Assembly (NCBI GenBank): GCA_004431415.1
Contig: QPMI01000492.1
Location: 1-55,474, forward strand
Direction of reading: 5' to 3'
Source of the DNA: Cyanophora paradoxa CCMP329
Taxonomy: Eukaryota; Plantae; Glaucophyta
Length of the DNA: 55,474 nt
This document shows, piece by piece, positions 565 to 54,835 of the stretch; position 1 is the stretch's first letter, and each line of letters begins with the position of its first letter. Below the pieces are notes generated by a model, which was not told the DNA's origin, made no database searches, and was given only the letters and a program-made list of their open reading frames with translations. The position numbers and the translations under genes are program-made.

Positions 565-614
565 AAGTATTGCAATACTCCAAAAGTGCAGATATATCCC
601 AGCTCACCGTTAAA

Positions 615-1859
615 ATGCAGGAGGGCTTCGGGTCGACTTCGCTCGCCCTGAGTCGACTTATGCGCGACCTGAAGCAGATGATAAAGGAGGAGACCAAGGG
701 GCGGAAGCGCGTCTTAATTGCCGTCTACCAGGAGGGCCTCAACAGGATCAATCACATCGAAGCCCTAAGGCGCGAATTCGGCTCGGCCATCCGTCACTCG
801 GGCGTCTCGTCGAACGGAGGGGCGCAGGTGGCCCGCCTGGCGGACGCCAACTCGCGCCTCGAGATTCCCGGTACCTTCCGCATGCAGGATTGGTGGGAGG
901 CCGAGGCCTTCAGGAATTACGGGGCCTTCATAGACAACGGGATCAATTCCCAGAGCCCCAAGGCAAACTGGCTGGTACCCAAGGCCTACGTCGATAAATT
1001 GGTTGACAGGCCTGCAGCCCCTTACACCAAAAAGATCACCAAAGGCATCGAGTACTGGGCGCCCGAGCCAGGCCAGCCCGTCTTTGCATCGCAGAACTAC
1101 GAGTGGCACATGGCGCCGGGGGCGAGCCAGGCCGTCAGCACCGTGGGCGTTGCCGTACCGCAGCTGGCGGCCGTGGCGCATACAGGAGAGTACCAAGATC
1201 TAAAAGGGAGGCCGACGATACCGACAATTCCAGCAACTTGGGCGTGGGATAACATCACGGGGAAGCCGAGCACGTACCCCCATGCAGATCACCAGCACAC
1301 CATCTCTCAAATCAGCGACTGGACGGCCCCCGACTTGTCGAACATCACCGTGGACTGGGAAACTCAAGTTACGGGGAGGCCAACCACCTTCCCCCCCTCG
1401 ACTCACAGTCACAACGTGGACTGGGAAACTCAAGTTACGGGGAAGCCTCTCACCTTCCCCCCCTCTACGCACAGTCACACAGAGTACTCGCTCACCGGCC
1501 ACGGGCACAGAAACGTGAACATGGATGCTTACATTCAACACGGCACTTTCTTTCATACGTACTCTGCGTCCACAACTTTCGATCTCAACACAACATACAT
1601 TGTCACGTTCAATATGAGTTTCTCGGAGGAATACGACGCTGGTGGCGGGTTGGGGGTACCCGCAAACACGCTACCAAACGTAACAGTTACCCCATCCATA
1701 AAACTTGGAGTGGATGTCGACATGACAGTGAATGTCTACGACGTCACCTTCACCGGATTTGTCGTCAGAGTGAGGTTCAGGCCCACGATGACAGAAACGA
1801 TCATCGAATCTAAAAGGCTCACGATCTACTGGATGGCAGCGGGCAAGCTGCGGATGTAA
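615..1859 (+). CDS. Virus/phage tail-fibre-like protein with phage tail repeats and a C-terminal H-type-lectin/gp53-like head
   Basis: Motifs PKAYVD, LAAVAHTGEYQDLKGRPTIP, WDNITGKPSTYPHADHQH and 2x VDWETQVTG(R/K)PxTFPPSTHSH. C-terminus IQHG..VTFNMSF..PNVTVT..VTFTGFVVR..IYWMAAG. ATG at 615 in an AAAATG context. Confidence 0.75.
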   Translation: MQEGFGSTSLALSRLMRDLKQMIKEETKGRKRVLIAVYQEGLNRINHIEALRREFGSAIRHSGVSSNGGAQVARLADANSRLEIPGTFRMQDWWEAEAFRNYGAFIDNGINSQSPKANWLVPKAYVDKLVDRPAAPYTKKITKGIEYWAPEPGQPVFASQNYEWHMAPGASQAVSTVGVAVPQLAAVAHTGEYQDLKGRPTIPTIPATWAWDNITGKPSTYPHADHQHTISQISDWTAPDLSNITVDWETQVTGRPTTFPPSTHSHNVDWETQVTGKPLTFPPSTHSHTEYSLTGHGHRNVNMDAYIQHGTFFHTYSASTTFDLNTTYIVTFNMSFSEEYDAGGGLGVPANTLPNVTVTPSIKLGVDVDMTVNVYDVTFTGFVVRVRFRPTMTETIIESKRLTIYWMAAGKLRM

Positions 1860-1883
1860 TCGATTTTCTGATGCAATCCAAAA

Positions 1884-2711
1884 ATGTCAGTTGCTGTTCC
1901 TTTGTTCACCTACGCTGCCAGCGTGAATCACAAGGGCGATCACACGATTAAGGAGACCACCCTCGGAAACCAGGCCACCGAGACCCCCTACAACGCCACC
2001 GCCGTCCCCTTCACCGAGGCCGACCTTATCTGCGTCGGCGAGCTGCGCTGCGATAAGATGCGCACACGGGAGGGCGGGTCGGCCGTGCCGGGGCGCGTGA
2101 AGACGCAGAGGCTCACCGTCACGAACGGCTCCTGGGACGGGAGTGGTCACACCACAAACGCCCTGACCTTTAACGGTACTGCCGACGGGGAGGGGAATGC
2201 GGCGCTCTACGTGCAGGGGGGAGGGGCGGACGTGGTGGGCGGGCTGCGGGTCAACGGGGCCGCAACAATTACGGGCTACCTGAAGCACCCAAAGCCGGCT
2301 TTCTGCGTGGGCCTGAAAACAACGTTTGTAACACCAGCGGAAAAGGGGGTCATCAAACCATGGGGGTGGGCGTGGATCAACACGGGAGGCTTCAATACGA
2401 CGGAGGGCACATTCACGGCACCCGTGAGCGGGGTGTACAAATTTACGCTGTCGGCAACCAGTGCTGTCGCAGGGGCCCTTTCCGTCACGCTGCGGAGAAA
2501 CGGATCGGAAGGCGTGGATGGTGCGAAACCCTGGGCGTACACAAGCGAATCCGGCGATAACCGCAACCTTGCATTTACGTTCATGTGCACTCTGGCACAA
2601 GATCAGTACATCGATCTTTACTCCTGGAGTGGTCAGTACCTGGGCGAGGGATTGAGTGTCACACCCAGTGGCTTCACCATATTCACTGGCGAGCTTGTTT
2701 ACATGACGTGA
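1884..2711 (+). CDS. Fibre-like protein with C-terminal C1q/TNF-like domain
   Basis: PAFCVG...NTGGFNTTEGTFTAPVSGVYKFT...VTLRRNG...FTIFTGELV is the C1q signature. It is preceded by the fibre shaft motif ALYVQGGGADVVGGLRVNG. Confidence 0.8.
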   Translation: MSVAVPLFTYAASVNHKGDHTIKETTLGNQATETPYNATAVPFTEADLICVGELRCDKMRTREGGSAVPGRVKTQRLTVTNGSWDGSGHTTNALTFNGTADGEGNAALYVQGGGADVVGGLRVNGAATITGYLKHPKPAFCVGLKTTFVTPAEKGVIKPWGWAWINTGGFNTTEGTFTAPVSGVYKFTLSATSAVAGALSVTLRRNGSEGVDGAKPWAYTSESGDNRNLAFTFMCTLAQDQYIDLYSWSGQYLGEGLSVTPSGFTIFTGELVYMT

Positions 2712-2729
2712 GTCTTGGTGTAGAACGAC

Positions 2730-4763
2730 TCAGAGGCCGTACTTGGCCTTAAGGTGCGTCATCAGGCTGCTGATGTCGCCCGCGGAGCCGGAGCGCCCGA
2801 CAATGATGATCTCAGCGACAAAGGCGTTGAGGTACCCGCCCCAGACACCAATGTTCCTCCCAATGAAGCCGGATGTGCGGGCCTGTGCAAGGGGCAGCCG
2901 GTAGAGGGTCCCGTACCTCCACGCGCCCGGGATCGCGGTAGCGCCCCCGCCCTGCAGCGAAGACCAGAACGTACGCGACGTGTCCGTGAACTGGCATATG
3001 AAGACGCTGTAGGAGGATGTCGATGTCGTCTGGGGCGTGGTCGTGTACGCACTGTACGTCGTGGAATTCGGGCTGACGCCTGTGACGATCCGACCCGGGT
3101 CGTTCAGGTCGTGCATCGCGTAAATGATGCCGGATACGTCCGATACCACGCCAATGTTCCAGTAGTTCGTGTGATCTACGCTGCTTATGGCCTTCACTAC
3201 CAACGCGACCAGGAACCCATTCGGGTAAGCAACGTTGTTGAACCGCGACAGGTGCGCCGAAAAGTCTAGCCACTGGCTGGAAGCCGACGTGAAGCGCAGC
3301 GCCGGCTTGCCGTTGCTGGCGTTCGCGACGAAGGTAGGGCGGTTTGCCGGCGTCGACTGCGTTGCGGACTCTGCGGTGTTCGCGAGGTTCTGCCAGCTGC
3401 TGACCGCTGCGCCGTCTGCAAGCGAGAGGGACGAGGCGTCGAAGTGCTGCACCAGATCTGTACCGAACTGAGCGGCAACGGAGAAGAGGGTGACGCTGCT
3501 GCTTCCCGAGGAGGGGCCCTCCTCGCCCACCTGGTTGACGCCCTTGACGGTGTAAGTGTACGTGGCCCCGTAGACGGCCGTCGCGTCCGAGTAGGGGCTG
3601 GCGCTGGCGTTCGCGAGGAAGGCGCCGCCCCTGTAGATGTTGTAGGAGACGGTGACGCCCGTCGCCGGCGCGGACCACGCGAGCACCACGGGCAGCAGCT
3701 GGGGCGCCCCTTCCGTCGGGGTCGCGGTGAGCCCCGCGGGCGCCGCCGGGTCCGTGGTGACGTAGACGGCCACGCTTGTGAGCCCCTCCCCGCCCAAGTT
3801 CGTCGCGGAGATCTGGTACTCGTACCCCGTACCCCAGACCGTGGTCGCGTCGCTGTAGGAGTTGGTTGCGGAGTCTGTAAGGTAGGCCCCATCCCTGTAG
3901 ATCTTGTACCCCGTCGCCCCCGTGGGCGCCGTCCACGCTAAGCTGACGGGCTGCTGCTGATCGTCGGGTGCAGTCGCCGTCACGTTCGTGGGTGCCGCCG
4001 GCTTCGTCCAAACAATGAGGGGATCGGACTTTTCGTATTCGACCCCGCCCACGATGCCAGCCACCTGGTAGGAGTACTCCGTGCCCCATGCAAGGGCAGT
4101 GCTATCATCGATGTACGAGGTAGACAGGGCACTGCTTGCAAATCCGATTGGCGTGCCGTTCCTGTAAATTCGAATCGAGTCCACACCCTCCATCGCGACC
4201 CAGTCGATTGTGATGACGATGGTGGGTTTCGGGAAGCCCGCAGACGCGGGGCCGCCCCCTGCGATAAAATCGCCGTAGGTCTGGGCCGTGGCAGTCGTGA
4301 GGGTGGTGTAGGCTTCGATCTGCGGGCTGAAGCCGCCTATGCCTTGGAAGAGAATGTAATTGCTCATGGCACCCTCGTGGGTGTAGAGAAGCGACTGTGC
4401 GTAGGTTGTGGGCGGGGCTTTGCCATCGGAGCCCGTGCTGCTGCTGCCTTGTTCGCGAACTGCCGCCACTCGATAAAGTCGCTGGGCCCCCAAACTAAAG
4501 GGCGAGTCCGTGTAGGTGACAGTTGGTGCGTTCACCGTGGCCACGAGATCCCAGGGGCCGTTGATGCTGGTAGCCCTGTACACCTTGTACTTGACGGCAT
4601 TGGTGACGGCGACCCAGTTCAGTTGAAATCCGTAGGTGCCGCCCCCGTTATTGAGCACGGAGCCCGATCGCACCTGGGGCCTGCCCACAGTCAGCGAAAT
4701 TGGCTCCACGCCGTACTGCGGGGCCTGCACCACCTGCTTCTTCACGAATACGAAGCGGGGCAT
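2730..4763 (-). CDS. Multi-fibronectin type III protein with C-terminal LamG/concanavalin-like domain (virion surface/adhesin-like)
   Basis: Repeated FN3 patterns such as LAWTAPTGATGYKIYRDG..SYSD..YEYQISATN. C-terminal domain starts LVQHFDASSLSLADGAAVSSWQNL. 677-aa uninterrupted ORF. Confidence 0.8.
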   Translation of the reverse strand: MPRFVFVKKQVVQAPQYGVEPISLTVGRPQVRSGSVLNNGGGTYGFQLNWVAVTNAVKYKVYRATSINGPWDLVATVNAPTVTYTDSPFSLGAQRLYRVAAVREQGSSSTGSDGKAPPTTYAQSLLYTHEGAMSNYILFQGIGGFSPQIEAYTTLTTATAQTYGDFIAGGGPASAGFPKPTIVITIDWVAMEGVDSIRIYRNGTPIGFASSALSTSYIDDSTALAWGTEYSYQVAGIVGGVEYEKSDPLIVWTKPAAPTNVTATAPDDQQQPVSLAWTAPTGATGYKIYRDGAYLTDSATNSYSDATTVWGTGYEYQISATNLGGEGLTSVAVYVTTDPAAPAGLTATPTEGAPQLLPVVLAWSAPATGVTVSYNIYRGGAFLANASASPYSDATAVYGATYTYTVKGVNQVGEEGPSSGSSSVTLFSVAAQFGTDLVQHFDASSLSLADGAAVSSWQNLANTAESATQSTPANRPTFVANASNGKPALRFTSASSQWLDFSAHLSRFNNVAYPNGFLVALVVKAISSVDHTNYWNIGVVSDVSGIIYAMHDLNDPGRIVTGVSPNSTTYSAYTTTPQTTSTSSYSVFICQFTDTSRTFWSSLQGGGATAIPGAWRYGTLYRLPLAQARTSGFIGRNIGVWGGYLNAFVAEIIIVGRSGSAGDISSLMTHLKAKYGL

Positions 4764-4802
4764 TTTCCTCTACGATCCGAAAAAATATCTGCCCCGGGGT
4801 AA

Positions 4803-5483
4803 ATGACTTCCAACTGGTACCAGACCCTCAGCGGCTCACTTGACGTTGGCAACAACACCAAGGATTTCGCGCGCATCTCCTCTGGCAGCTACGTCGACGT
4901 CTTCCTGCAGAATCCCGTCGTGATTCAGGCCGTTCAGAACGCCTACGCCACGCCCAAGATTTACTCCTACCAGCTCTTCTTCGACCCTCTGAGCCTCAGC
5001 GCAGAGGTAATCGAGCTGCTGCACGAATCAGGACTCGTGAAAAAGGTGGCGCCTGCCACGGCCACAGCCAACGTCCTGCGCTGTCTCGAGGTAAAGTTCA
5101 GGGAGACGGGGTACGGCCCCACCGTAAACCAGTACACCAGTACCGATCTGCCGGGTACGGGTGCATACACGGCGCGGGGTACGCTCAAGGGCGACGTGCT
5201 CTTCACAAAATTCAACCCGAGTCCCGTGACCCTGGGGGCCCTCTACACTGGCGGCAATCCGCGCGCTTCCGGGTTACCCCGCTTCCCCTTCACCTTCTTC
5301 AGGTTTCAGGTCTTCCCCCTCTCCTACGCCGCCGACCAGCCCCACTTCAGCACGGGCGCGAGCCTCTGCGCTGAGCTGCGCGAGTGCTCGATTTCCTACA
5401 GGCACACCACCGGCTCCGACGCCGTGCAGCCCGCGGCCCGCATCTCGGGCATCGGCAACGACATCGCCCTCTTCTACGGATAA
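4803..5483 (+). CDS. Unknown protein, paralogue of 5507-6289 (possible structural protein)
   Basis: 226-aa intronless ORF sharing the blocks QNPV, SGL(V/L)KK, LE(V/L)KF, NPR..PR..FT and AEL.E..Y with the next ORF. Confidence 0.7.
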   Translation: MTSNWYQTLSGSLDVGNNTKDFARISSGSYVDVFLQNPVVIQAVQNAYATPKIYSYQLFFDPLSLSAEVIELLHESGLVKKVAPATATANVLRCLEVKFRETGYGPTVNQYTSTDLPGTGAYTARGTLKGDVLFTKFNPSPVTLGALYTGGNPRASGLPRFPFTFFRFQVFPLSYAADQPHFSTGASLCAELRECSISYRHTTGSDAVQPAARISGIGNDIALFYG

Positions 5484-5506
5484 TCTTTCTCATTCGAGAT
5501 CGCAAA

Positions 5507-6289
5507 ATGCCGACCACCTCGGCCACCATCGTGAAGACTGTGCTGCCTACCCCCGATTTCTACGGCGACACCGCAGCGGCCAACGCTGGGACGGATTCCG
5601 TGGTCTGGGACGGCAATTACGCCTCCATGCTGACCGTGAAAATCCAGAATCCCGTCATGCTGCGCGTCACATCCAACGATTTCGAGAATCCCGCCTCCTG
5701 CTCCGTGTACGTGTACTTTGACACCGACTCGGGCGTGAGCGCGGACGAGGCGGAGGCCCTCTGGCTCTCGGGCCTGTTAAAAAAGATAGAGCCCTCCGTG
5801 CCAGATCGGGCCGCGATTCGCGTGCTCGAGCTCAAGTTCACTGCCAACACCGCCCTCACCCGCACCTTCAACGGCGGCACCAAGACCCACATAGACGGCG
5901 CCCCCATCAGCAGCGCACACAAGACGACCCAGGCCGTCCCCTTTGAGATGTACAACCTCTGGAAGATGACCGCAAAGGAGATGATGACGAATGCCACCAC
6001 GGGCGGAGTCTCGGGTACCTCGTTTTCCTACGATTCCTCGAATCCCCGTACCCAGGTCTGGCCCCGGCTCCTCTTCACGAAATTCACTTTCAAATTGTAC
6101 AACAACATTGCGGGTATGCCTACCTCTGGAATGGTCGTGGGTTCTACCCTCATGGCCGAGCTGATCGAGGCGGAGGCTGACTACACGACTGCCACCACCA
6201 ACCCTGCCAACGGCACCGCTACGAACTACGTGGCCTGGAGCACGATTGACCGCGAGTACGACACTAAGATTCACACCACTAGCGTCTAG
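5507..6289 (+). CDS. Unknown protein, paralogue of 4803-5483
   Basis: Starts MPTTSATIVK at AAAATG 5507, 23 nt after the stop of the previous ORF. Homology blocks as above. Confidence 0.7.
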   Translation: MPTTSATIVKTVLPTPDFYGDTAAANAGTDSVVWDGNYASMLTVKIQNPVMLRVTSNDFENPASCSVYVYFDTDSGVSADEAEALWLSGLLKKIEPSVPDRAAIRVLELKFTANTALTRTFNGGTKTHIDGAPISSAHKTTQAVPFEMYNLWKMTAKEMMTNATTGGVSGTSFSYDSSNPRTQVWPRLLFTKFTFKLYNNIAGMPTSGMVVGSTLMAELIEAEADYTTATTNPANGTATNYVAWSTIDREYDTKIHTTSV

Positions 6290-6644
6290 ACTGGCTAAGC
6301 TGCACTAGCACCTGTGCCGCCTCCATCATCTCCCGAATCTCCTCGCTCTTCTCCTGTAAATTGGCGTACCCCCTCCTCTTCTTGCGAATCTCCGACATTG
6401 ATGCCCAGCGCAGGTTCTCCCTCCTGTAGTCCAGCGGGTTGCCGTTGATGTGTTCCACGTAGCGTCCACGTGGCGACTTCCCGAGGATCAGTTGGGAGAG
6501 GTAGTGCTTGCGCCCTCCGAACGTCTTGCTCACCCTGTCCCTGTCCACTCTCCAGGGAAACTCCAAGGCACTCGGGGGTACGTCCGAGTTGACCAGGACG
6601 TTGTAGGCGACGTCTTGCGAGTCGGTGCACTGGAGCAGGGCCAT
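6279..6644 (-). CDS. HNH_3-type homing-endonuclease-like protein with atypical residues
   Basis: YLSQLILG...YVEHINGNPLDYRRENLRW versus the family pattern VDHING(N/D)xLDNRxxNLR. Confidence 0.75.
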   Translation of the reverse strand: MALLQCTDSQDVAYNVLVNSDVPPSALEFPWRVDRDRVSKTFGGRKHYLSQLILGKSPRGRYVEHINGNPLDYRRENLRWASMSEIRKKRRGYANLQEKSEEIREMMEAAQVLVQLSQSRR

Positions 6645-6668
6645 TTTGCCCTAGGTTCAGAAAAACCT

Positions 6669-6741
6669 GGGACTTGGGACTTGGGACTTGGGACTTGGGA
6701 CTTGGGACTTGGGACTTGGGACTTGGGACTTGGGACTTGGG
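6669..6741 (+). repeat. (GGGACTT)10 heptamer array, G-quadruplex-competent
   Basis: 10 perfect copies followed by GGGAAGAGTT. Confidence 0.95.
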
Positions 6742-7072
6742 AAGAGTTGAAACCCAGGTCCCGGCCCAGACTTTCTCCAGGATCAGAAATTTGTCAGACA
6801 AGTCAGGTGAGTTTTTCTATCGACTTTTTTACTCCTACCACCCCTCATACTCTTTTTTACTCGTAGTCTTTTTTACTCGTATCCCATCTCATACCCTCCT
6901 TCTCTCGACATCTCGCACGAAAACTCCTACCCCCCTTCGTCTGGAATGTCACCAGAAACGTCGTATGCAGATTTCCGTACCCCTGTCTAAGTCTGCCCGG
7001 TGGTTAGGGACTTGGTGCAGCAAACTCTCAGATCCAGAGAAATTCTGGGCCCAGACCCTGAGTCTAACTCTT

Positions 7073-7110
7073 CCCAAGTCCCAAGTCCCAAGTCCCAAGT
7101 CCCAAGTCCC
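7073..7110 (+). repeat. (CCCAAGT)5 heptamer array, inverted relative to 6669-6741
   Basis: 5 perfect copies preceded by AACTCTT. Confidence 0.95.
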
Positions 7111-7184
7111 AGGATCGCGCCAAGTCATAACTGAATAGTCGGCCAATTTTTACAAGTATGTACAATGGAATGACGCAATACTAT

Positions 7185-8255
7185 TTACATCATCTCGAGA
7201 TCAGAGTCATCGTCATCGGAAACCAACTCAATGAGGCCCTCGGGCGCCGACTTAAGGGGAATGCGGGGAAGGGCCTGCGCTGCCTGCACCAAGTCCTGCC
7301 GCTCCTGCTCGCGCTGCGCCGCCAAGGCCGCTGCCGCCTCTGCCTCGCGCTGCCGCTGAGCCTCGATGCGCGCCTTGAGCTCGGCTGCCTCCTTCTGCTT
7401 GCGCTCGGCGACGCGGGCCTTGTGCATCTCGCGCTGCTTGATCCGCTCGTGGCGCCGCTTGCGCTCCAACTCCTTGCGAAGCTCGTTGCAGAGGACGCGC
7501 TTCTCAATGGTCTTGACGTGCTGAGTCAGGCGCTCGCTGTAGTGTGACGTCACGCGAGAACGGGCAATGCCAGCGCCGAGCTTCAAGTCCTTCTCGTGTG
7601 CCTTGGCGGGGTCCTTGACGCGCTCGGAGTTGTCGGTGAATGACGTGGTCTCCATGAACTTCTTCTTGACGATTGACTTGGTCTTGATAATGCGGCGCTT
7701 GCGAGTCGGGTTGTCGTTGTCGCCTTCAGAGTCAGAAGACGACTCAGAGTCGTATGGAATCGGCACGTCAAAGTCGATGAAGTCGTTGATGTCAGACTCG
7801 GCGTCAGAGGCCTCGGACTTGGCGTCGTCGACGGGCTCGGGGGCGGGCTCGGCGACGGGCTGAGGGGCAGATGACGACGATGACGGAGGGGGGTAATTCG
7901 TGAAGACTTGAGGGGGATAGGCCCAGGCGAGCGTCTCGGCGGCAGACTCGGCGAAAAGCTTGGGGTCGCCCCAGCCAGTGGGAGTCTTGACCCAGCCGGG
8001 GACGGGGGGCACGTCGACGGGGGGCTCGGGCTTGGGTTGCTTGGCCTTGGATTTCTTGGCCTTGGACGTGAAGGCGGACTTGGGGAGAAGTTGCACTTCG
8101 GGGCCAGTGGCGCGTAAGATGGCATAATTGTAGATGTACCCCAGAGCGTCGGCGCGCTGCTCCATCTCAGGGGTAGCCCCTTGAGTGCCACCGGAGTTAG
8201 CCCACGTTGCTTGGACAAAGGCGAAGTCCTCAACAAGCTCAGAAGGAATCGACAT
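7185..8255 (-). CDS. Orphan nuclear protein: Pro-rich/acidic region, basic NLS-like patch, coiled coil, C-terminal SIM-like motif
   Basis: ATG at 8255 (MSIPSELVEDF) directly after a GCGCAG acceptor-like site. Contains PTRKRRIIK, an E/R/K/A coiled coil and LIELVSDDDDSD at the C-terminus. Confidence 0.65.
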   Translation of the reverse strand: MSIPSELVEDFAFVQATWANSGGTQGATPEMEQRADALGYIYNYAILRATGPEVQLLPKSAFTSKAKKSKAKQPKPEPPVDVPPVPGWVKTPTGWGDPKLFAESAAETLAWAYPPQVFTNYPPPSSSSSAPQPVAEPAPEPVDDAKSEASDAESDINDFIDFDVPIPYDSESSSDSEGDNDNPTRKRRIIKTKSIVKKKFMETTSFTDNSERVKDPAKAHEKDLKLGAGIARSRVTSHYSERLTQHVKTIEKRVLCNELRKELERKRRHERIKQREMHKARVAERKQKEAAELKARIEAQRQREAEAAAALAAQREQERQDLVQAAQALPRIPLKSAPEGLIELVSDDDDSDLEMM

Positions 8256-8600
8256 CTGCGCAAAGGGAAAAGAGATCAGCAAAGGCAAAACGTGAGGTGA
8301 CTGTGAGGGCGGACTTGCACGGATTCGGAGAGGCGGAGTTTGCTTGGGCTGAGAGAGGCGGCGAACCCGTTTCAAGAGTGAGCCAAAATGGCGGCGGACC
8401 GCGGTTTTGTTGCCGATTTTTTTTGCGGTCTAGTTGGCAACAGAAACGTTGCGAACTGGCCCGGAAAAAAGTTGGGCCGAAGGTAAAAAAGTTGGGCCGA
8501 AGCCCCCCTACCCCGCTGAGCCGGCCTGACGGAAATCGCCCGAGTGCGTCCGCCGAAGGTCGAGTCTCGGATGGGGGGTACACCCTCAGGGGGCCCCCTC

Positions 8601-9092
8601 TCATTCTGGCAGTACCCTCTGAAATGGATTTTCGAAGCCGTGTAATTGCTGGTATTCATCGTACCCCTCAAGCGAGGGGCTGTACCCCACTGTTACCTGT
8701 GGGAGCCCCATTGCGCGCCTCCGTCTGTCCTCTCTCAATTGGCTGCGGAAAAATCTGCGTCTGTCTTGGCTGTCGCGTGTCGCGCCATCTGTGTTGGATC
8801 GATCATTGTTAGGGTTGTGAGTGTCACGTACTAGCTGTACGAAATATTCGCGTAGGTCAGCTGGTAGGTTCTGGAAGTTGTCTGCTGCGTAGAGCTGTAT
8901 CCATTCCCTCAACCTGAATGGGAACTGACTGGCAAGCCCCAGCGCGTGATTGAAATCGGGCTCCGGCGACACGCCAGGGGGGACTGAGATGTGCCAGCGC
9001 CAGAAATCGGTCAATCGTGTGAACAATTGATTGATTTCAAATGGGAAATCGTAGAACAAGGGCGGGGGCGGCCCCGGAGGTTGGTTAGCCAT
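8601..9092 (-). CDS. Orphan protein of about 163 aa (MANQPPGPPPPLFYDFPF...)
   Basis: AAAAATG start with the TTTTCGGA motif 11 nt upstream, like the other island genes. Confidence 0.6.
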   Translation of the reverse strand: MANQPPGPPPPLFYDFPFEINQLFTRLTDFWRWHISVPPGVSPEPDFNHALGLASQFPFRLREWIQLYAADNFQNLPADLREYFVQLVRDTHNPNNDRSNTDGATRDSQDRRRFFRSQLREDRRRRAMGLPQVTVGYSPSLEGYDEYQQLHGFENPFQRVLPE

Positions 9093-9123
9093 TTTTCTCC
9101 CCTTCCGAAAATTTCCCCGCTTT

Positions 9124-9770
9124 TGAGTCCAGACTCTGATTTTAACTCTTCCCAAGTCCCAAGTCCCAAGTCCCAAGTCCCAAGTCCCAAGTCCCAAGTC
9201 CCAAGTTTTCCCTCAATTTCACGCGTAGAAAACGCACTTTTCGGCCTTTTCCGATTTTTCTTTTCTCGCGATCGCAGAAATGCCCCCGATCTCGAAATCG
9301 CGATCGAAAAGGGTCGCGATCGGGAGAAAGTCGCGATCACCACCGAGGGCCGCAAGAGTGGCCTTAGGGGGTAGGGCTCGCAGTAGGGAGATTCCCTCGG
9401 GGTTAGTCTAGCTGGAGACCCAATAGGGGGGAGGTAAGCTAGACTTGTCGTGTGTTTGTAGGCCTAGGCCTAGGGTAGGCAGATAGCATTAGCTGTTTGT
9501 CAACTTGGGGCACCAGTCCCCTAATACACTAGGGATTACTGAAAAAAAAAATGAGTCCAGACTCTGATTTTAACTCTTCCCAAGTCCCAAGTCCCAAGTC
9601 CCAAGTCCCAAGTCCCAAGTCCCAAGTCCCAAGTTTTCCCTCAATTTCACGCGTAGAAAACGCACTTTTCGGCCTTTTCCGATTTTTCTTTTCTCGCGAT
9701 CGCAGAAATGCCCCCGATCTCGAAATCGCGATCGAAAAGGGTCGCGATCGGGAGAAAGTCGCGATCACCA
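9124..9770 (+). repeat. Two identical 219-bp direct repeats (9124-9342, 9552-9770), each with (CCCAAGT)8, flanking a 209-bp poly(A)-ended insert
   Basis: Copies read TGAGTCCAGAC...GCGATCACCA. The insert at 9343-9551 ends in an A10 run. Confidence 0.9.
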
Positions 9771-10050
9771 GGGTCGCGATCGGGTCGCGATCGCCGCGAT
9801 CGCCAGCCTCGGAAGGGGTACCCCCACGGCCGTTACGGCGGTTATAAGAACCTCCGCAATCCAAGCGTCACGTCCGAGTCTCGAGCTCTCGAGGTTGCCT
9901 TTTCGGGTTTGGCCCATTGATGGCCCTCATATATATTTAGTTTAACATCGATACAATCATATATACAAATGCATATATCCTAGGCCTTCCATATCTGTAG
10001 CGATATATATATATATATATGGATATCGATCTCATTTCCTCGATTTGCAG

Positions 10051-27350: not shown

Positions 27351-30300
27351 CTACGGGAGGCCAAAGAGGGCCTTCTCGACGTGGTCGGGCCGGCGCTTCG
27401 TGGGGCGGATGTACCCCAGGAAGTCCAGCTCCTTGACCGAACGGTAGAAGCGCGCCCTGCCGCCCGGTCACTCATCTGCGGGAGGGGACACGGGACGGCA
27501 TTTCTGGAGTGGCGCGGCGCACTGGAGCTCCTTCAGGTCGAGGTTGGCCGCCTGCTTCGCCTCCGAGAAGGATACGAACCTGCGGGGGGTATGGGATTGC
27601 GGAGGCGACGAGCTCGGGGGGTACAGCACGCACCAGTCCGCGAGGGAAACCAGGCGGCCGGACTTGCTGAAGATGTCGTACCTGCCCGCGGGTCGAATCC
27701 GGCCGGGGTACACAATCATCGATCCATTTTCGGCGCACGCGAGTGTGAGGTCGTCCCAGCAGTGGGCCTTGGCGCTCGTTTTCGGCGCAGGCGCCTTCCC
27801 CTTGTCCTTGTCCTTGTCGCTGGGGCCCGCCCCATCCCCCGTCCCCTCCTCCACGCAGCACTCGCACTGCGGGCGGGCGTGAGGCGCGAGGGGTACAAGC
27901 GGGGCTTGACGGGCGTGCGGGCGGGGTACAGGCGGGCCTGCAGGATGGGCTGGGGGTCGGACAGGGCCCGCTGGATTTGCTTCCGGATGGGCGGCGAGAG
28001 CATCTGAGGAAAGCAAAGCTCAGAAGGTGAATCCAAGCGGGCTACGACCCCGCACCTGGGCGAGCGTTCCAGAGCCCCCGAACAGGAACGTTTCGTGGAG
28101 GGGTAGGCGCGAGGGCGGCTTCAGATTCTCCCTGCAGCCCGGGGGGTCGGCAGGAGGAGGAGGGTACTTGCATAACGGGGCCTGGAGGGGTACAGGGCCA
28201 GCGCACTCGCAGAAGACGCGGAAGAAATCGTTCAGCGCCGACTCGAGGGCCGCGTGCTTCGCCATGCTCGCCTTCTGCTCGTACCCCCTTAGGATCGATC
28301 CGGGGGTACAGGAGACTCGCGGGGGGTACGAGGCGCACCGTGGCGGACGGGGAGGCAGAGCCGCCGGTCGCTGTCGCGAGCATGACCCTGCGCCGCCCGA
28401 GGCTCGGCGGGGTACCGAAATAATACTGAGAAAACGCCGGGGGTACCGCCTCCTCTTGGCGGCGCTCCACGTCGTCGCGTCCTGCGCGGCGTCCTTGGCC
28501 GCCCCCGCCTCCTAGGAGGCGCTCGGTGTGAGGCGGGGCGCGGGGAGGAAGGGGGGGGGGGGGGGAAGAGGGGGGGAGGGAGGAGGGGGGGGGGAGGGGG
28601 AGGCGGGAGGCCCGTTCACCTTGCTCGGCCCGTCCGCCTGTTCGTCCTGTCGCGGGGGGTACCGTGATAAGACGCGGGACGGGAGACGGGTAAACAGGCG
28701 GCGGTGGCCGAGGGCCGTACCCCCCCGGCGGCCTTGGGCTCGGGCTGGAGGATCCCGCGGAGCCTCGCGGCGTCGTCGCGGAACAGTTGGTCCTCCTGGG
28801 AGGCAGGCGTGAGGGGTACGGTGATGATTTGGGACAGGGGGGGGCGGGTGGGGGGTACGCGTACCGACTCGAGCTGCTCGACCCACTTCTCGCCTAGGGA
28901 CTTCAGCGCGTCCGTCCGCAGCAGTCTGCGAGAAGGTTCCTCGCCCTCGCCCTCGAGAGAAATGTGGGGGTACACAGAAGGGGACGGGTACCGGAGCGCG
29001 GAGAGGAGACCGTTGTGCGAGGCCCCGCCCAGGAGGGTACCGGAAAGGTACTCCAGGTAGAGCTGCGAGGGTTGAGACGGGGCGCGTTGTACCCCCAAAG
29101 AATCTAAACTCCGGCGGACCTGCCGCCGGGAGCTGGCGCTGGATTCGGAGACAGAGGACGAGGAGGAGCCCGAGCGGCCTGCCGCGGGTTCGATTCCGGA
29201 GGAGGACGGAAGGCGAGCGGGCGGGGGGCGGGGCGGGGCGGGCACCGCCGGCGGCCGCGCGGCTCGTCTCGTGCCACAGGGCCATCGCTACTCGGGCGCT
29301 AAGACAGGGCGCGTCACGGGCGAAGAGATAGACACCGTAGTACGGAGAGCAAGTCGAGAGGGTACCGTATGCGGGCCTGGCAGGTGGAGAGGAAGACCCG
29401 GGGTAGAAGCGCGCGAAGCAGGCCGTCCGCCCCCTCCTCCAGGTCCGCCGCGGCGACCTGGGGCGGGCTCGGGGAGGGGTACGGGGGAGCCGGGGGGAGT
29501 ACGGGCGCACCTCGAGGCCCGGAACGGAGTAGAGGTGCGCCTGGGGCCCGGCGAGGCGCCGGAGGGAGGGGAGGGCCCGGATGCGGGGGAGGAACGAGGG
29601 GGGTACGACCTCCTCGGAAGCGGAGGGGCTGGCCGCGGTAGCCCCCAGGAGGCGATGGACGGCGGCCAGGTTAGCGGGCGCCTTGGGGGGGCACAGCCCC
29701 GCGACGGGGTTCCCGTAGTAGTGCTGCATCGCCGCCGCCTGGGGGGTACGCGTTCGGGGCGGGAGGGGTACCGATCAAGCGGAGCTTGGGGGGTACCTGA
29801 ATGGAGCGGGAGAGCCCGGAGACGGAGTGGCTGTGCTGGAGGAACTGGTCCGAGAGGAACGCCCAGACCTGCCGGCCCGAGGGGTACGTCAGTTCCGAGC
29901 GGGGACAACAGGCGCCGGGACGGGTACGGGCCTCGCCGCCCAGGACGATGCCGTGGTCCCCGTCCAGGAACACCTGTATCCCCGTGAGGAGCAGGAGGAG
30001 GAGGCGAGAAGCAGGGTACAGGTCGCCGCACGTGGGTCACGATCGCATCGAAGTACGCCTGCGCCAAAATATGAGGGAAGCGAGCGAAGAATTGGTGAGA
30101 GAGAAAGCAGCGGGGACCTGGGGTCTCGGCATGTGGAAGTGGCGTATGCGAAGCAGGACCGAGACGGAGCGCGGCAGGAGGCGCTGGATGGATCCCTGTA
30201 CCCCGCCTCAGCCGCTGCGGGGGGCTCCAAGGTGCGCGGGGGGGTACCGCGGCGCCGCCGAAGGCCGCGGAGCCGGAGACGCCGGCGACGAGGACGAAGG

Positions 30301-33917: not shown

Positions 33918-36055
33918 ATGTTCCTCGCGCAGGTACCCCCCTTCTTTCGAGACTGCATCGAGCAGGAGAACGTCCCCGAGCCGCTGCGCGCGGAGGGATT
34001 GACCGCTCTCCACGCCCTCGTCGGGGGCTACTACTACGATTTCCATGTCGACGGTGCACGAAAGGCAGGCCTGGCCCCGGCCCACTACTACCTACACCAC
34101 CCCACCCCGCAGCCCCTGCCCCTTAATTAATTATATTATAAGCTTTCCCGCTGACTCTCGCGCATGCGCAGGTGATTCAGGAGTGGCAGCTTGCCTCCCT
34201 TGTCGACGCGCCGCTGCGCTCCGGAATTCGAACGGGCCGTACCCCCCTCCACCTTGCTGTAGAGACCCCGAACCCTCTCCTCGTGACCCTTCTGGAACTT
34301 GGCGCCGACCCGCTTCGCCAGGTTCGAATTCGCGATCGTCGCAGCCCGCGGTTGCCCGCCCGCTCGCTCGCGATCACGATCACGCAATCTTCTCACACGG
34401 CACGCGCGCGGGGGGCAGGACGCGGCCGGTTCCACCGCGCTGCACATCGCGTGCAAGCGCGCCAACATCGACGCCGTGCGATCTCTTCTGAAGTTCGGCG
34501 CTGTGCCGCTCTGCAAGGTGCGGCTCCAGCCTGGCAGCCCCGAGCTCGAGGCCATAGCTAGCTCGCTCTGGTCGCGCCCCGAAAGGACGCCGCGGGCGCC
34601 CGGAGAGATAGACGGTAGAGCTCGAGTACGTAGTTAAGACTAGGCTGCGCCCGGCACGCGTGCCTTGCTTGCACTGGGTGTCCTTTATCAACTCTACTTG
34701 ACTCTCAGAGTCTTAACTCTACCGCCACACCTTATTACATATACATACAAGCCACCTTACTATCTCTCCGCAGGTACAGGACGCGGCGGGCGCCACCGCG
34801 CTGCACATCGCCTGCGGGCGCGGGCACGTGGACGTGGCGCGGGCGCTGCTGGAGTGGGCGGCGGGCGCGGGCGCGGGGGCCGACGTCCTCTCCGCGAGGG
34901 ACGGCGGGGGCCGCACCCCGCTGCAGCGGCTCGTACACGGCGGCAGCGATGATGAGCCCAGCAGGCCTGCAGCGGACGTTAACGCGTCGCTCATCGCAAT
35001 CCATGCCGTCCGTGCGTTCTCTAGATCTAGATCGTAGATCTAGATCTTAGATCTAGATCCGACCCATCCGAGCTCGAGCTCGCCCGCCGCAGAGATCTTG
35101 GAGCTGGACGGCCCGCGCCTGGAGGCCCTGGGGCCCACCAATTATCCTATAAGGTAATGCATTATTAATTAGCACTTCTTCAAAGGCCCTTGTTTGAAAG
35201 CCTGCCCTTACCAATATTGCTACGTGGTTAGGTGCGTATTTACCAGCTAGAATTAATGATTCAATCTCAGTAACAACAAATCGTGCCTCCTCTTTATCAT
35301 TCCAACAAGATATTATTTTAATTTTTCCCCCGTCTATTCTATCAGTCCATAGGGTTTTCCATCCTGGAGGAGGCCGTCCGGGGCCGGGAGGGCGCCGAGC
35401 CGCTCCTCCACTTCGCGGCGCGGAGGGACATGCCCGGGGCGGTGCGGGCCCTCCCGGGAGCCGGCGCCGACCCGGCCCCCGCCTCGAGGTTCGAATCCGC
35501 ACCCTAGGCCTCCCTAAGCTTACGCCTGCTGAGAGTTGAACCCGCCCGGGCCCCGCCCCCTCCCGAGATATAAGTCTTACTATAAACCCCCGTTGCTAAT
35601 TATAAGCCTTGTTATAATCCGCCTCGAGGTTCGAATCCGATGATCCGCACCCTCCCTGATCATGATCCTCCCTGATCGTTGCCTACGCTTAAGCCTGCGC
35701 GCGTCCCCCGCACGTCGTTGCTAATTATAAGCCTTACTATATAAGCCCCCGTTGCTAAATACAAGCCTTGTTATAAGCAGGCCCCTGCCCGATCGTTGCC
35801 AAATTATTATATAGGCCCTTGTCGACGCCGACTTTAGCTTCAGGGCTTCCCCCGCAGGACAGGGGCGGCGCGATGGTTCTGCAGGCGGCCGCGCAGTCCC
35901 GGGTGCGGGCGGTGCAGCGGGCGATCCGCGCCTTCGCCGGCGAGCGGGGCGTGCCCCTCGACGCGATCGGGGACACGAGCTACCGGCTCGCGGCCGACGT
36001 CGACGCCGGGAGCTCCCGCCCAGAGAAGCGGGCCCGCACCAGTCGCCGATCCTGA
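33918..36055 (+). pseudogene. Ankyrin-repeat gene, probably disrupted
   Basis: GRTPLHLAV, GSTALHIAC, GATALHIACGRGHVDVARALL and PLLHFAA. One exon is frameshifted by a 221-bp insert. Confidence 0.7.
35141..35361 (-). other. uvrD: AT-rich bacterial uvrD/pcrA helicase fragment (Rickettsiales-like) inserted in a host exon
   Basis: [54 protein letters not shown] matches the UvrD C-terminal domain. Abrupt drop in GC content. Confidence 0.85.
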
Positions 36056-36240: not shown

Positions 36241-36845
36241 TCTCTCTCACCAATCCTTCGCTCGCTTCCCTCATTTCGAATTCGGCGCAGGCGTATACGT
36301 ACTTCGATGCGATCGTGACCCACGTGCGGCGACCTGTACCCTGCTCCTCGCCCCCCTTCCCCCCCCTGCTCCTCACGGGGGTACAGGTGTTCCTGGACGG
36401 GGACCACGGCATCGTCCTGGGCGGCGAGGCCCGTACCCGTCCCCGCGCCTGTGATCCCCGCTCGGGACTGATGTACCCCTCGGGCCGGCAGGTCTGGGCG
36501 TTCCTCTCGGACCAGTTCCTCCAGCACAGCCACGGTCTCCGGGCTCTCCCGCTCCATTCAGGTACCCCCCAAGCTCCGCTTGATCGGTACCCCTCCCGCC
36601 CCGAACGCGTACCCCTCCAGGCGGCGGCGATGCAGCACTACTACGGGAACCCCGTCGCGGGGCTGTGCCCTCCCAAGGCGCCCGCTAACCTGGCCGCCGT
36701 CCATCGCCTCCTGGGGGCTACCGCGGCCAGCCCCTCCGCCTCCGAGGAGGCCGTACCCCCCTCGTTCCTCCCCCGCATCCGGGCCCTCCCCTCCCTCCGG
36801 CGCCTCGCCGGGCCCCAGGCGCACCTCTACTCCGTTCCGGGTCTC
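36241..36845 (+). pseudogene. Inverted partial duplicate of ORC3 (source 29514-30104), introns retained
   Basis: Near-identical reverse complement of the source, with small indels (CACTCCGTCTCC to CACGGTCTCC; an extra 6 nt in GCGTATACGTACTTC). Confidence 0.9.
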
Positions 36846-52326: not shown

Positions 52327-54835
52327 ATGGCATCCGAGATATCAATTGTCGCCACGGCGGTAAGCTCAGCTCAGCTGCTCAGCGCGCGCTCAGCTTGCAA
52401 ATTACATGCGCAAGGAGCGCTGTCAATTGCGAATTCGAATGCTGCGTCTGGAATCCCAAGACCCGAATTCGAATGCTGTGCCAGAAATCCCCAAGAATCC
52501 CCAGGAATGTACAGCGCGGAAGACGAAGCCCACGCCCTGAAAGAGCGCATCTTTTCATTCTAGTGCTCTCGCCGCGCGCGCGTGCACGTCTGGAATGCGA
52601 TCGCAGGATCGGCTGGCGGCGGTGGAGGCGGAAGCCGCTGCTCAACGGCGCCGTGCAGAGGAAGCGGAAGCCGCGGTTCGATTTTCTCACGCTTTGAGCA
52701 TGTGAGAGTCGACTCGAATGTGATGTACCCGACAGGCCTGCCGCTGCAGCAGACCGCGTGCGCGCGGCCAACGCCGAGCCTCGAATTCGTGCCCGGAGAA
52801 GCTGCTGCAGCTGCAAACCGCGCTCGAATTTGCGGAGGCAGAGCGTGGCGCCCTCGCCGTGAGCTTGTCTCCCAATTCCGTTTGAACGTCTAAAAAATAA
52901 CCGAATATTGCAGGAGAAGCTGGCGGCGGCGGAGGCAGAGGTTGCAAATATGCTGCAGCTGCAGACCGCGCTCGAACGTGCAGAGGCAGAGCGTGGCGCC
53001 CTCACCGTGAGCTTGTCTCCAGATTCCATGCGAACGTCTAAAAAATAACCGAATATTGCAGGAGAAGCTGGCGGCGGCGGAGGCAGAGGTTGCAAATATG
53101 CTGCAGCTGCAGACCGCGCTCGAACGTGCAGAGGCAGAGCGTGGCGCCCTCACCGTGAGCTTGTCTCCAGATTCCATGCGAACGTCTAAAAAATAAATGA
53201 ATATTAATATTGCAGGAGAAGCTGGCGGCGGCGGAGGCAGAGGTTGCAAATATGCTGCAGCTGCAGACCGCGCTCGAACGTGCACAGGCAGAGCGTGGCG
53301 CCCTCACCGTGAGCTTGTCTCCCAATTCCGTTCGAACTTATGAGAAAGTCATGGACACATTTAATTTTATCCAATTAATATTGCAGAAGAAGTTGGGGGC
53401 GGCAGAGGCGGCGGCGGAGCTTGAGAGGCAGCAGCATCAGGTCGCGGTTGCGGAATTCGAAACTGCGGTGCGAGCTTTGTATATTTTTCTAATTACGATT
53501 CATGCAATATTAATGCGAATTTCAAGGCTTCGGCTCGTGATCAGGCGGAGGCGTGCAATCGCAAGCTGAAGCAGCGGATAGCAGAACTCGAAGCGAACGA
53601 AAAGCTTCTCAAGGTACGTATATCGACATACACATTGACTGTAGCTATAGCGATATCGACGATCTGATAAGCTGCAATAGGCTGCCACCGATGGCGGGGA
53701 CATTCGCCTGAACGCCGGGTCGAATGTCATGGAAGCTGTTCGGCGCGCCGTTCCCGGACAGACCATCCGACTCGCCCCTGGCCGGTGCTTTAGCGCTGCC
53801 ATGCGCGCAATATTAATTGCAATCTAGATCTCCGCTGATCACGAGGTACTCGCGTACGCGTACGCGTACGCAGGTACTATGAGCAGGTGAGGCTGGACAA
53901 GAACGTGCGCATCGTCGGGCCGCGCGAAGCGGTGCTGGTGTGGGACAAGGGACCGACAATCCTCTGCAAAGGGCCCGTGTCGCCACGCGTGGAGGGTATC
54001 ACCGTTCGCAACAGCGAGAAACACGATACGCCCTCGGCCGATTTCTCAGCCGTGAGCATCACGGACGGCAGCCGCGCCATATTTGAGAGCTGCAACATAT
54101 CGAGCCTTTGCGGAAACGGCGTCGACGTCAAGGGCGCGAACACGGAGCCGGTGCTGCGCTGGAACGTCGTGCACTACTGCGGTTTGTATGGAGTCCGCTG
54201 CGTTCGTGCGGCTGGCATAATCGAGGTAATCATAACTTAAGTAAAGATTACATAATTAAGAATATAATATTAATCCTGCATTAATGATATTATCTCCACG
54301 CGCAGGGTAACGAGATTCGCGGCCACCATAAGGCTGGGATCGGAATCATGAATAAGGCGAACCCGCTGGTCCAGGGCAACAAGGTCCACGGCGGCGAGAG
54401 CCACGGGATCGAAGTGCGCGGCGAAGAGACTAAGCCAACGCTCCGGGAAAACGTTGTGCACAACTGCCAGAAGTTTGGCTTCTACCTGCATACATCATCG
54501 AAAGCCGTCGTTGAGGTGCTTCCATATGCATATTAATATCCCTGCATGATGATAGTTGATTCGCAATTTTTTTGCAGAACAACAACGTATTCGACACTCT
54601 TTTTCCGGCCATTTACATTGCAAAAGGGGCGGAACCTGTCGTAAGGGGGAACAAGCTGAAGGTCTGGACCGCTCAGAGCCGTGTACGAGATTCTTACTTC
54701 GCTGTTAACGCTCTGGCGCGTCAGATTGACGACCGGTCTGCAATGTCGGAAGCCATCTTCGTCGACAAGACCGGGAAGGGTGTCATCACAGAGAATAGGA
54801 TTGTGGATGCTCGCTCGAGAAACGTTGACAGTTAG
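52327..54835 (+). CDS. Coiled-coil plus right-handed beta-helix (CASH/NosD, FBXO11-like) protein
   Basis: AVPGQTIRLAPG..YYEQVRLDKNVRIVG, followed by repeats such as NPLVQGNKVHGGESHGIEV and PTLRENVVHNC. Confidence 0.75.
52790..53340 (+). repeat. Tandem exon+intron duplication of about 148-154 bp (3 full copies plus 1 diverged partial copy)
   Basis: Exon EKLAAAEAEVANMLQLQTALERA(E/Q)AERGALT plus intron GTGAGCTTGTCTCC...AATATTGCAG, repeated. Confidence 0.9.

Follow-up and report, generated by a model that had tools for sequence, protein, structure and literature searches.

In the 55,474-nt window (the whole stretch of Cyanophora paradoxa DNA analysed here), two arrays of a G-rich heptamer, inverted with respect to one another, converge on a T-rich core and form with it an intergenic cassette (6666-7113) of a truncated virus-like element. 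Endogenous viruses of this alga are already known, and the cassette is a real, element-linked cis site. That it is intrinsic to the element we regard as very probable, and a cis-acting role is plausible because, as far as could be tested, the cassette acts like a stable component of the element and not like an independent MITE or satellite. By analogy with known origins, we tentatively suggest that it may be an internal site at which replication of the element starts; transcription control, a relic repeat and joined genome ends are weighed against this reading below.

Table 1. Positions of the virus-like element, its genes and the parts of the cassette within the window.
Feature	Position	Strand	Remarks
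Truncated virus-like element, approximate extent	594-9830		truncated at the left; right end estimated by eye from the character of the sequence
Three fibre-like genes	615-4763		phage-tail matches, C1q, fn3
Paralogous genes P0004 and P0003, fold unsettled	4803-6289	+	two genes
P0002, HNH_3-family gene	6279-6644	-	upstream motif abuts array A
Array A, CCTGGGA + (CTTGGGA)10	6666-6742	+	G-rich strand directed into core
Arm A inner flank	6743-6790	+	invariant over 6746-6811 in contigs of three runs
Core	6790-7027	+	four T5-6 runs; TTTTTTACTC[CG]TA three times; CTC[ACG]TA six times; 6810-6940 75.6% pyrimidine
Extra-sequence point	6938-6941		other copies probably ~96 nt longer; none of the listed contigs bridging
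Arm B inner flank	7028-7071	-	matches arm A at 36/47 columns; other copies fall into three sequence types
Array B, five units + CCTGGGA	7072-7113	-	G-rich strand directed into core
P0046 gene, 356 aa, multi-copy, without family match	7185-8255	-	acidic tract, basic patch, coiled-coil-like end
219-nt repeat, copy 1	9124-9342	-	contains array C (8 units, 9150-9206) with its inner flank; precedes ORF 9092-8601
219-nt repeat, copy 2, 100% identical	9552-9770	-	array D (8 units, 9578-9634); near likely right end of element

Inverted heptamer arrays surround a T-rich core

The inverted arrays described in the initial annotation, (GGGACTT)10 and (CCCAAGT)5, were recovered exactly (6669-6738 and 7073-7107). 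The variant unit CCTGGGA forms the outward end of both cassette arms (6666 and 7113), and the 14-mer CTTGGGACTTGGGA, with at most one mismatch, has 29 matches in the window compared with a mean of 0.01 in 100 shuffles. The arms, of 85 nt, align at 88% (6703-6787 with 7028-7111). An inverted similarity had been said to continue inwards for about 60 bp; it does exist, with the inner flanks 77% alike (Table 1), but it is clear over about 45 nt only and then fades, and the middle of the cassette is non-palindromic. Likewise, the G3N4 arrays A and B that converge on the core do fit the G4 consensus, as had been noted, but this consensus is common, with 55 matches in the window of which only four are heptamer arrays, and the heptamer unit scores 1.14 as against 1.5 for TTAGGG in a G4Hunter-type script.

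Within the core, the motif previously reported in three copies, TTTTTTACTC[CG]TA, was found again at 6825, 6853 and 6869, and proved to be part of a wider pattern, since all six copies of CTC[ACG]TA lie on the + strand. The longest word present three times in the core measures 11 nt; in 1000 dinucleotide shuffles such words reached at most 8 nt (0/1000 reached 11). The T5-6 runs are confined to the + strand, runs of T5 or longer occur at 12 per kb in the core versus 0.55 per kb in the host flank, and the purine/pyrimidine skew of 6810-6940 is matched by only 0.35% of 131-nt windows. The inner flanks resemble the consensus of the Pol III B box; despite this resemblance a Pol III reading was dropped, as they are without the invariant C of that box.

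The initial annotation had missed two additional copies of the module made up of an array and its inner flank, arrays C and D, which lie in a perfect 219-nt direct repeat. The first 26 flank letters of these arrays match arm B at 21 positions and arm A at 17. Neither array C nor array D is paired, their outer ends differ from those of the cassette, and they have no T-rich hexamer core; all four arrays (A-D) point at the core of the cassette. Between the identical repeats lies a unique spacer of 209 nt (9343-9551), which ends in ten A.

The cassette lies in a truncated, multi-copy viral insertion

The window consists of GC-rich eukaryotic DNA, with RCC1 and alpha-kinase matches in the flank, and carries at its left a gene-dense island with a GC content of about 0.60 versus 0.66. 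The fibre genes of the island match PHROG tail families (E 2e-9 and 2.5e-19) and, above the cut-off, C1q. One of them, ORF 615-1859, contains a 66-nt tandem repeat with phage-tail matches, and a relative has a sub-threshold Gp53-like C-terminal match (E 0.0078). Because this ORF matches only the last 430-460 residues of gene models of 1395 and 1682 residues elsewhere, and the match starts at 594, the copy in the window is cut on the left. A 107-bp tandem repeat with palindromic units (210-564; 3.2 copies, 98%) ends about 30 nt before this cut.

A compact insertion of lower GC, present in many copies and carrying phage-like fibre genes, fits Polinton-like viruses (PLVs), and the element is likely an endogenous PLV of the algal nuclear genome; the window contains no capsid, integrase or replication genes of the element and no terminal pair. 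For C. paradoxa, the supplement of PMC10120064 lists 366 viral capsid genes, and PMC12344493 describes repeats and viral genes as methylated and mostly silent and reports giant-virus insertions as well. In one PLV of this alga, the fibre combines two phage-tail repeats with a lectin domain at the C-terminus (PMC12220804), and ORF 615-1859 is similar in layout. With the endogenous PLVs of C. paradoxa the element shares the host label, many dispersed copies, a GC content below that of the host, phage-like fibre genes and an HNH gene; unlike them, the copy in the window is without capsid, ATPase, integrase and terminal-repeat pair. Neither a capsid gene nor a packaging ATPase was present among the seven scanned ORFs of the left-truncated island, and as regards terminal repeats its left and right ends did not match one another, the true left end being missing from this copy. 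The named contigs of six listed capsid representatives are absent from the 54 contigs named for the P0046 family, and, because the 54 named genes of that family sit on 54 different contigs, the P0046 gene does not lie inside a terminal repeat.

Besides the genes in Table 1, the island codes for a 163-residue ORF. All named relatives of its proteins are labelled Cyanophora paradoxa. The P0046 family comprises 28 clusters with 55 member sequences, and at least 59 loci besides the window could be counted from the listed accessions (members of all nine multi-member clusters); the HNH gene has 18 listed loci, and P0004 has 11 clusters with 48 sequences. The gene neighbourhood recurs with the genes, as judged by gene and accession numbers and hence as gene order, not DNA: 17/18 HNH loci adjoin a P0046-family gene, and in 37/43 contigs with a P0003/P0004-family gene a P0046-family gene lies within three gene numbers. 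Conversely, a P0003/P0004 gene is nearby for 37 of the 54 named P0046-family genes and absent for the other 17 in what are incomplete lists. A relative of P0004 with 44% identity, P0079, was found on a 2.5-kb contig.

Part of the cassette itself could be recognised at another locus, where a gene model (P0109) has a P0003-type exon spliced into array B, evidently mis-spliced. This model contains seven units and the variant unit, reads on into the same outer flank as array B (20/21 residues), and has a P0046-family gene as its neighbour. Outside the host, searches with P0003 and with the P0004 and P0046 alignments yielded no relatives in viral contigs, and the P0004 alignment yielded none in metagenomes. 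The motif of array plus flank had no match in metagenome contigs and a single chance match in viral contigs, to an AT-rich phage gene. The bare array alone is not diagnostic, because two viral contigs of phage-like context carry it with no shared flank. In one of these (L001, 7917-8062) two copies of the heptamer array face each other between two genes, but with the C-rich one first, the reverse of the order in the cassette, and with no shared flank; this pair is likely convergent.

P0046 itself is likely a nuclear regulator, to judge from its composition (Table 1). Members of its family combine several differing N-terminal versions of 60-80 residues with a nearly invariant C-terminal part that is acidic, basic and coiled-coil-like, and this part ends in a motif that resembles a SUMO-interaction site. 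The P0046 gene likely has a 60-nt intron that ends right at the start codon. As for P0004, a structure model from the single sequence was useless (pLDDT 31), and a six-sequence model (pLDDT 59) gave no Foldseek match at E <= 0.001. A wide structure search returned mostly, and consistently, OB-fold single-stranded-DNA-binding proteins, among them T7 gp2.5, SSB and ASFV CP312R, at Z scores of only 3.2-4.6, whereas a language-model search instead pointed to phage structural proteins. Binding of the G-rich strand by P0003/P0004 is a lead only.

A fixed part of the element or an independent repeat

Dispersal of the cassette through the genome independently of the island had been named in the initial annotation as the observation that would make it a MITE or satellite. 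The cassette is indeed dispersed through the genome; it is so together with the multi-copy island and, as far as this was testable, not independently of it. Moreover, no target-site duplication of 2-12 nt was found at the cassette ends and none of 4-12 nt within 6 nt of them, so that an independent MITE is unlikely, although solo copies may exist.

Foldback transposons have inverted arms with tandem outer units and a unique inner part, around a non-palindromic middle. The cassette shows this layout and shares with foldback transposons and MITEs inverted arms of tandem units and a non-coding middle. It might then be a relic of a foldback transposon, a MITE or a variable tandem repeat that entered an ancestral element once and was amplified with it, without function. 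Terminal inverted repeats, a hallmark of MITEs and foldback elements, are present as the 85-nt arms, which finish in the same variant unit; array lengths vary (10, 5, 8 and 8 units in the window, and 7 for array B at one other locus), and one type of cassette has a decayed array B. Set against this are the missing target-site duplication, the divergence of the arms, which differ by 23% while the flank of arm A shows no variant among copies, and the occurrence of the module unpaired and with other outer ends in arrays C and D. No heptamer array occurs in 45.6 kb of host flank, and the gene neighbourhood of the cassette, unlike that of such transposons, is fixed. On balance we consider a functionless relic unlikely.

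Cassette copies in public contigs probably vary in length and share an invariant left core

The initial annotation had proposed that conservation be compared across copies of the element, and public contigs permit this in part. Twenty listed runs, all of one species label and hence not independent lineages, hold part of 4800-9800, and 14 of them hold 0.46-0.51 of its words. The contig data span 6746-7068 only, with the arrays outside, and the contigs listed are part of all pieces; because they stop short of the arrays, only the window and P0109 inform on how array length differs between copies.

In one run (X1), the left core appears in one contig with a depth of 4975, covering 6746-6811, and the right core in three types whose depths of 2875, 1540.6 and 554.4 add up to 4970; these differ from the window at 8/128, 3/75 and 15/122 letters, respectively. 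Summed contig depth is not copy number, by the tool's own caution; the equal depth of the two halves in X1 suggests that they travel together. The halves agree less well in run X3 (1845 vs 1580), in which the minor type was not among the contigs listed. The left part of the core is the least variable: the 66 nt beside the left arm (6746-6811) have no variant letter in the contigs of three runs.

Most copies in the public contigs are probably longer than the cassette in the window. None of the listed contigs spans 6938 to 6941, and contigs extend 120 and 128 letters beyond these positions, so that, given overlaps of 30 letters, the common type would be about 96 nt longer than the copy in the window, with a gap of about 425 nt between its arrays. 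The copy in the window is thus likely a deletion variant, with part of the core missing. In the minor type, which accounts for a depth of 554 out of 4970 in X1, array B is degenerate and the left junction differs. Because array B is decayed in this type and part of the core is missing from the window, neither array B nor the full core is strictly kept. One 16-nt unit of the core has an additional copy in some contigs. In X1, G replaces the A of position 6847 in 1667 of 4293 depth units, and 6891 differs from the window in all contigs listed; since both changes turn CTCATA into CTCGTA, the hexamer is more regular in other copies. The comparison bears out a core common to many copies, with an invariant stretch beside the left arm, but not a constant array B or core length. 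As all copies come from one species, their likeness may stem from recent amplification and not from selection.

The adjacent HNH protein is probably nuclease-dead

The adjacent HNH-like protein, P0002, had been put forward as a candidate partner of the cassette. A comparison with viral HNH proteins, in which 80 of 157 loci were kept, 36 of these 80 fitted the motif pattern and gave 27 distinct motifs, and 44 were dropped, weakens the idea that it cuts or resolves DNA there. In P0002, E64 directly precedes the catalytic H, Y73 occupies the following conserved position and I86 the final one of the motif. At these positions the distinct viral motifs have D (27/27), N (26/27) and N (27/27), whereas E, Y and I are found in all six element copies aligned (6/6). 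We take the D and N of the HNH motif to bind metal, by comparison with I-HmuI. Because the conserved viral D, N and N are E, Y and I in P0002, the protein likely does not cut; it is likely nuclease-dead, with cutting improbable and DNA binding possible. At none of the 80 viral HNH loci were two heptamer repeats found in a row.

Replication start, transcription control and genome ends

Viral origins such as EBV oriP, the baculovirus hr and the SV40 ori have inverted arrays of binding sites around an easily melted core. The cassette likewise has iterated short sites, inverted, around a T-rich stretch, and it adjoins the gene of a candidate nuclear regulator. It differs from these origins in that the likeness is one of layout and not of compared sequence, and in that its initiator is only a candidate. 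If the cassette were a replication start, a protein, viral or host, or the folding of G4 structures would hold the arrays free of nucleosomes, while melting of the T-rich core would allow the replication machinery to be loaded there. Close to the end of the element, arrays C and D would then be further sites for the same factor, and the HNH protein would at most bind DNA, with no cutting.

In animal cells, G-rich elements known as OGREs are found 250-300 bp upstream of the sites where replication initiates, whose direction they determine (PMC6646384). Two arrays that point into a gap of 329 nt, or about 425 nt in the common type, fit the direction and roughly the distance of OGREs, and we counted this in favour of a replication start. 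In both cases a G-rich repeated element is directed at a site a few hundred bases away; the cassette differs from the OGRE/G4 origins of animals in that two arrays converge on one core, in an algal viral element, with a modest G4 score, and in that it is known from sequence alone. Many PLVs are without a protein-primed polymerase and use primase-helicases (PMC12220804), and for this reason an internal start is possible. What speaks against a replication start is that the OGRE analogy comes from animal cells, that the score of the unit is modest (1.14) and the G4 consensus common in the window, and that arrays C and D are unpaired and without the T-rich hexamer core.

A more elaborate version would make the element a nucleus-replicating glaucophyte PLV with a herpesvirus-style internal origin, in which convergent G4-forming arrays and a melting core would be read by P0046 or by the nuclease-dead HNH protein, and which would replicate as an episome with the machinery of the host, needing neither protein priming at its termini nor the help of a giant virus. 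We consider this version a long shot.

Transcription control ranks close behind a replication start, a slightly more doubtful reading in its own right, and both can hold. The arrays would then be enhancer or insulator sites together with G-rich pause or termination elements between the block of structural genes and the regulator gene, and the core may belong to a non-coding transcript. A T-rich motif of the type TTT(T)C[TG][GC]A (at 1864, 4784, 5486, 6665 and 9111) precedes the start codons of five island genes by 19-21 nt and probably represents a compact viral promoter. Two of these genes (6644 and 9092) have array A or array C immediately upstream, and the two arrays are in opposite orientations. 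Going by the sequence, read-through from the converging genes P0003 (+) and P0046 (-) would in each case meet a G-rich array. In the core, a donor-like CAG/GTGAGT (6804-6812) and an acceptor-like TAG (6864-6866) would make a putative 60-nt intron (6807-6866), the mean intron length of C. paradoxa being 86 bp (PMC6704402). However, the putative branch-point A of this intron is position 6847, and, because the G found there in 1667/4293 depth units restores CTCGTA, a repeated motif is favoured over a splice signal. No ORF follows the putative intron, and an Rfam scan of the stretch gave no family at the gathering threshold and two weak matches only (E 0.27 and 0.85). Transcription control alone would also leave unexplained why the inner flanks are symmetrically inverted. 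A tRNA scan found none, and scans for sigma-70 promoters and intrinsic terminators, two models ill-suited to a eukaryote, found nothing. One RNA run that was examined contained no sequence from the core, a result that does not bear on expression.

The cassette might also be a site of joined genome ends, or of packaging or resolution, in which linear virion DNA would have joined head to head, with the arms as its subterminal repeats and a nuclease or recombinase cutting the junction. The G-rich strands run to the core as telomeric strands run to an end, with four arrays pointing at it. An HNH gene lies beside the packaging ATPase in one PLV (PMC12220804), and the terminal repeats of PLVs can consist of repeated units (10.1101/2022.07.28.501842). 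The adjacent HNH protein, however, does not have the D and N that are conserved in its homologues; near-identity is the norm for terminal repeats, whereas the flanks of the cassette are 77% alike and its middle is non-palindromic; and a separate right end of the element seems to lie near 9830. The heptamer also differs from TTAGGG, the telomere repeat of the glaucophyte Glaucocystis (PMC3622300, in whose available text Cyanophora is not named). Joined ends are accordingly an improbable account. For the same difference in unit, and because the arrays are internal, a telomere reading fails as well.

Significance and further repeats in the window

How PLVs without a protein-primed polymerase start replication is an open question (10.64898/2026.07.28.741278; PMC12220804). 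The cassette is a cis element with sharp boundaries that recurs in a family of dozens of copies in an alga that can be cultured. It could therefore be taken directly into assays of origin, promoter or binding activity, in which natural variants with a shorter core or a decayed array B would serve as built-in controls. Were the cassette a terminator or a relic repeat only, it would be nothing unusual for an intergenic region of an endogenous virus whose class is likely known already. No description of the cassette was found in the literature searched, including the available text of 10.1101/2022.07.28.501842, 10.1101/2025.10.09.676808, PMC8547959 and PMC6704402, a scope that extends neither to preprint supplements nor to subscription papers; the available PLV accounts in PMC10120064 and PMC12220804 likewise describe no internal heptamer cassette.

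Elsewhere in the window, a pair of 550-bp inverted repeats (29514-30065 and 36290-36845), 92-100% alike in three pieces, lies about 6.2 kb apart and encloses an ORF on the - strand (35053-35502) with a UvrD_C match above the cut-off. In the host flank, a 148-bp unit is repeated in tandem in 3.6-4 copies (52803-53400).
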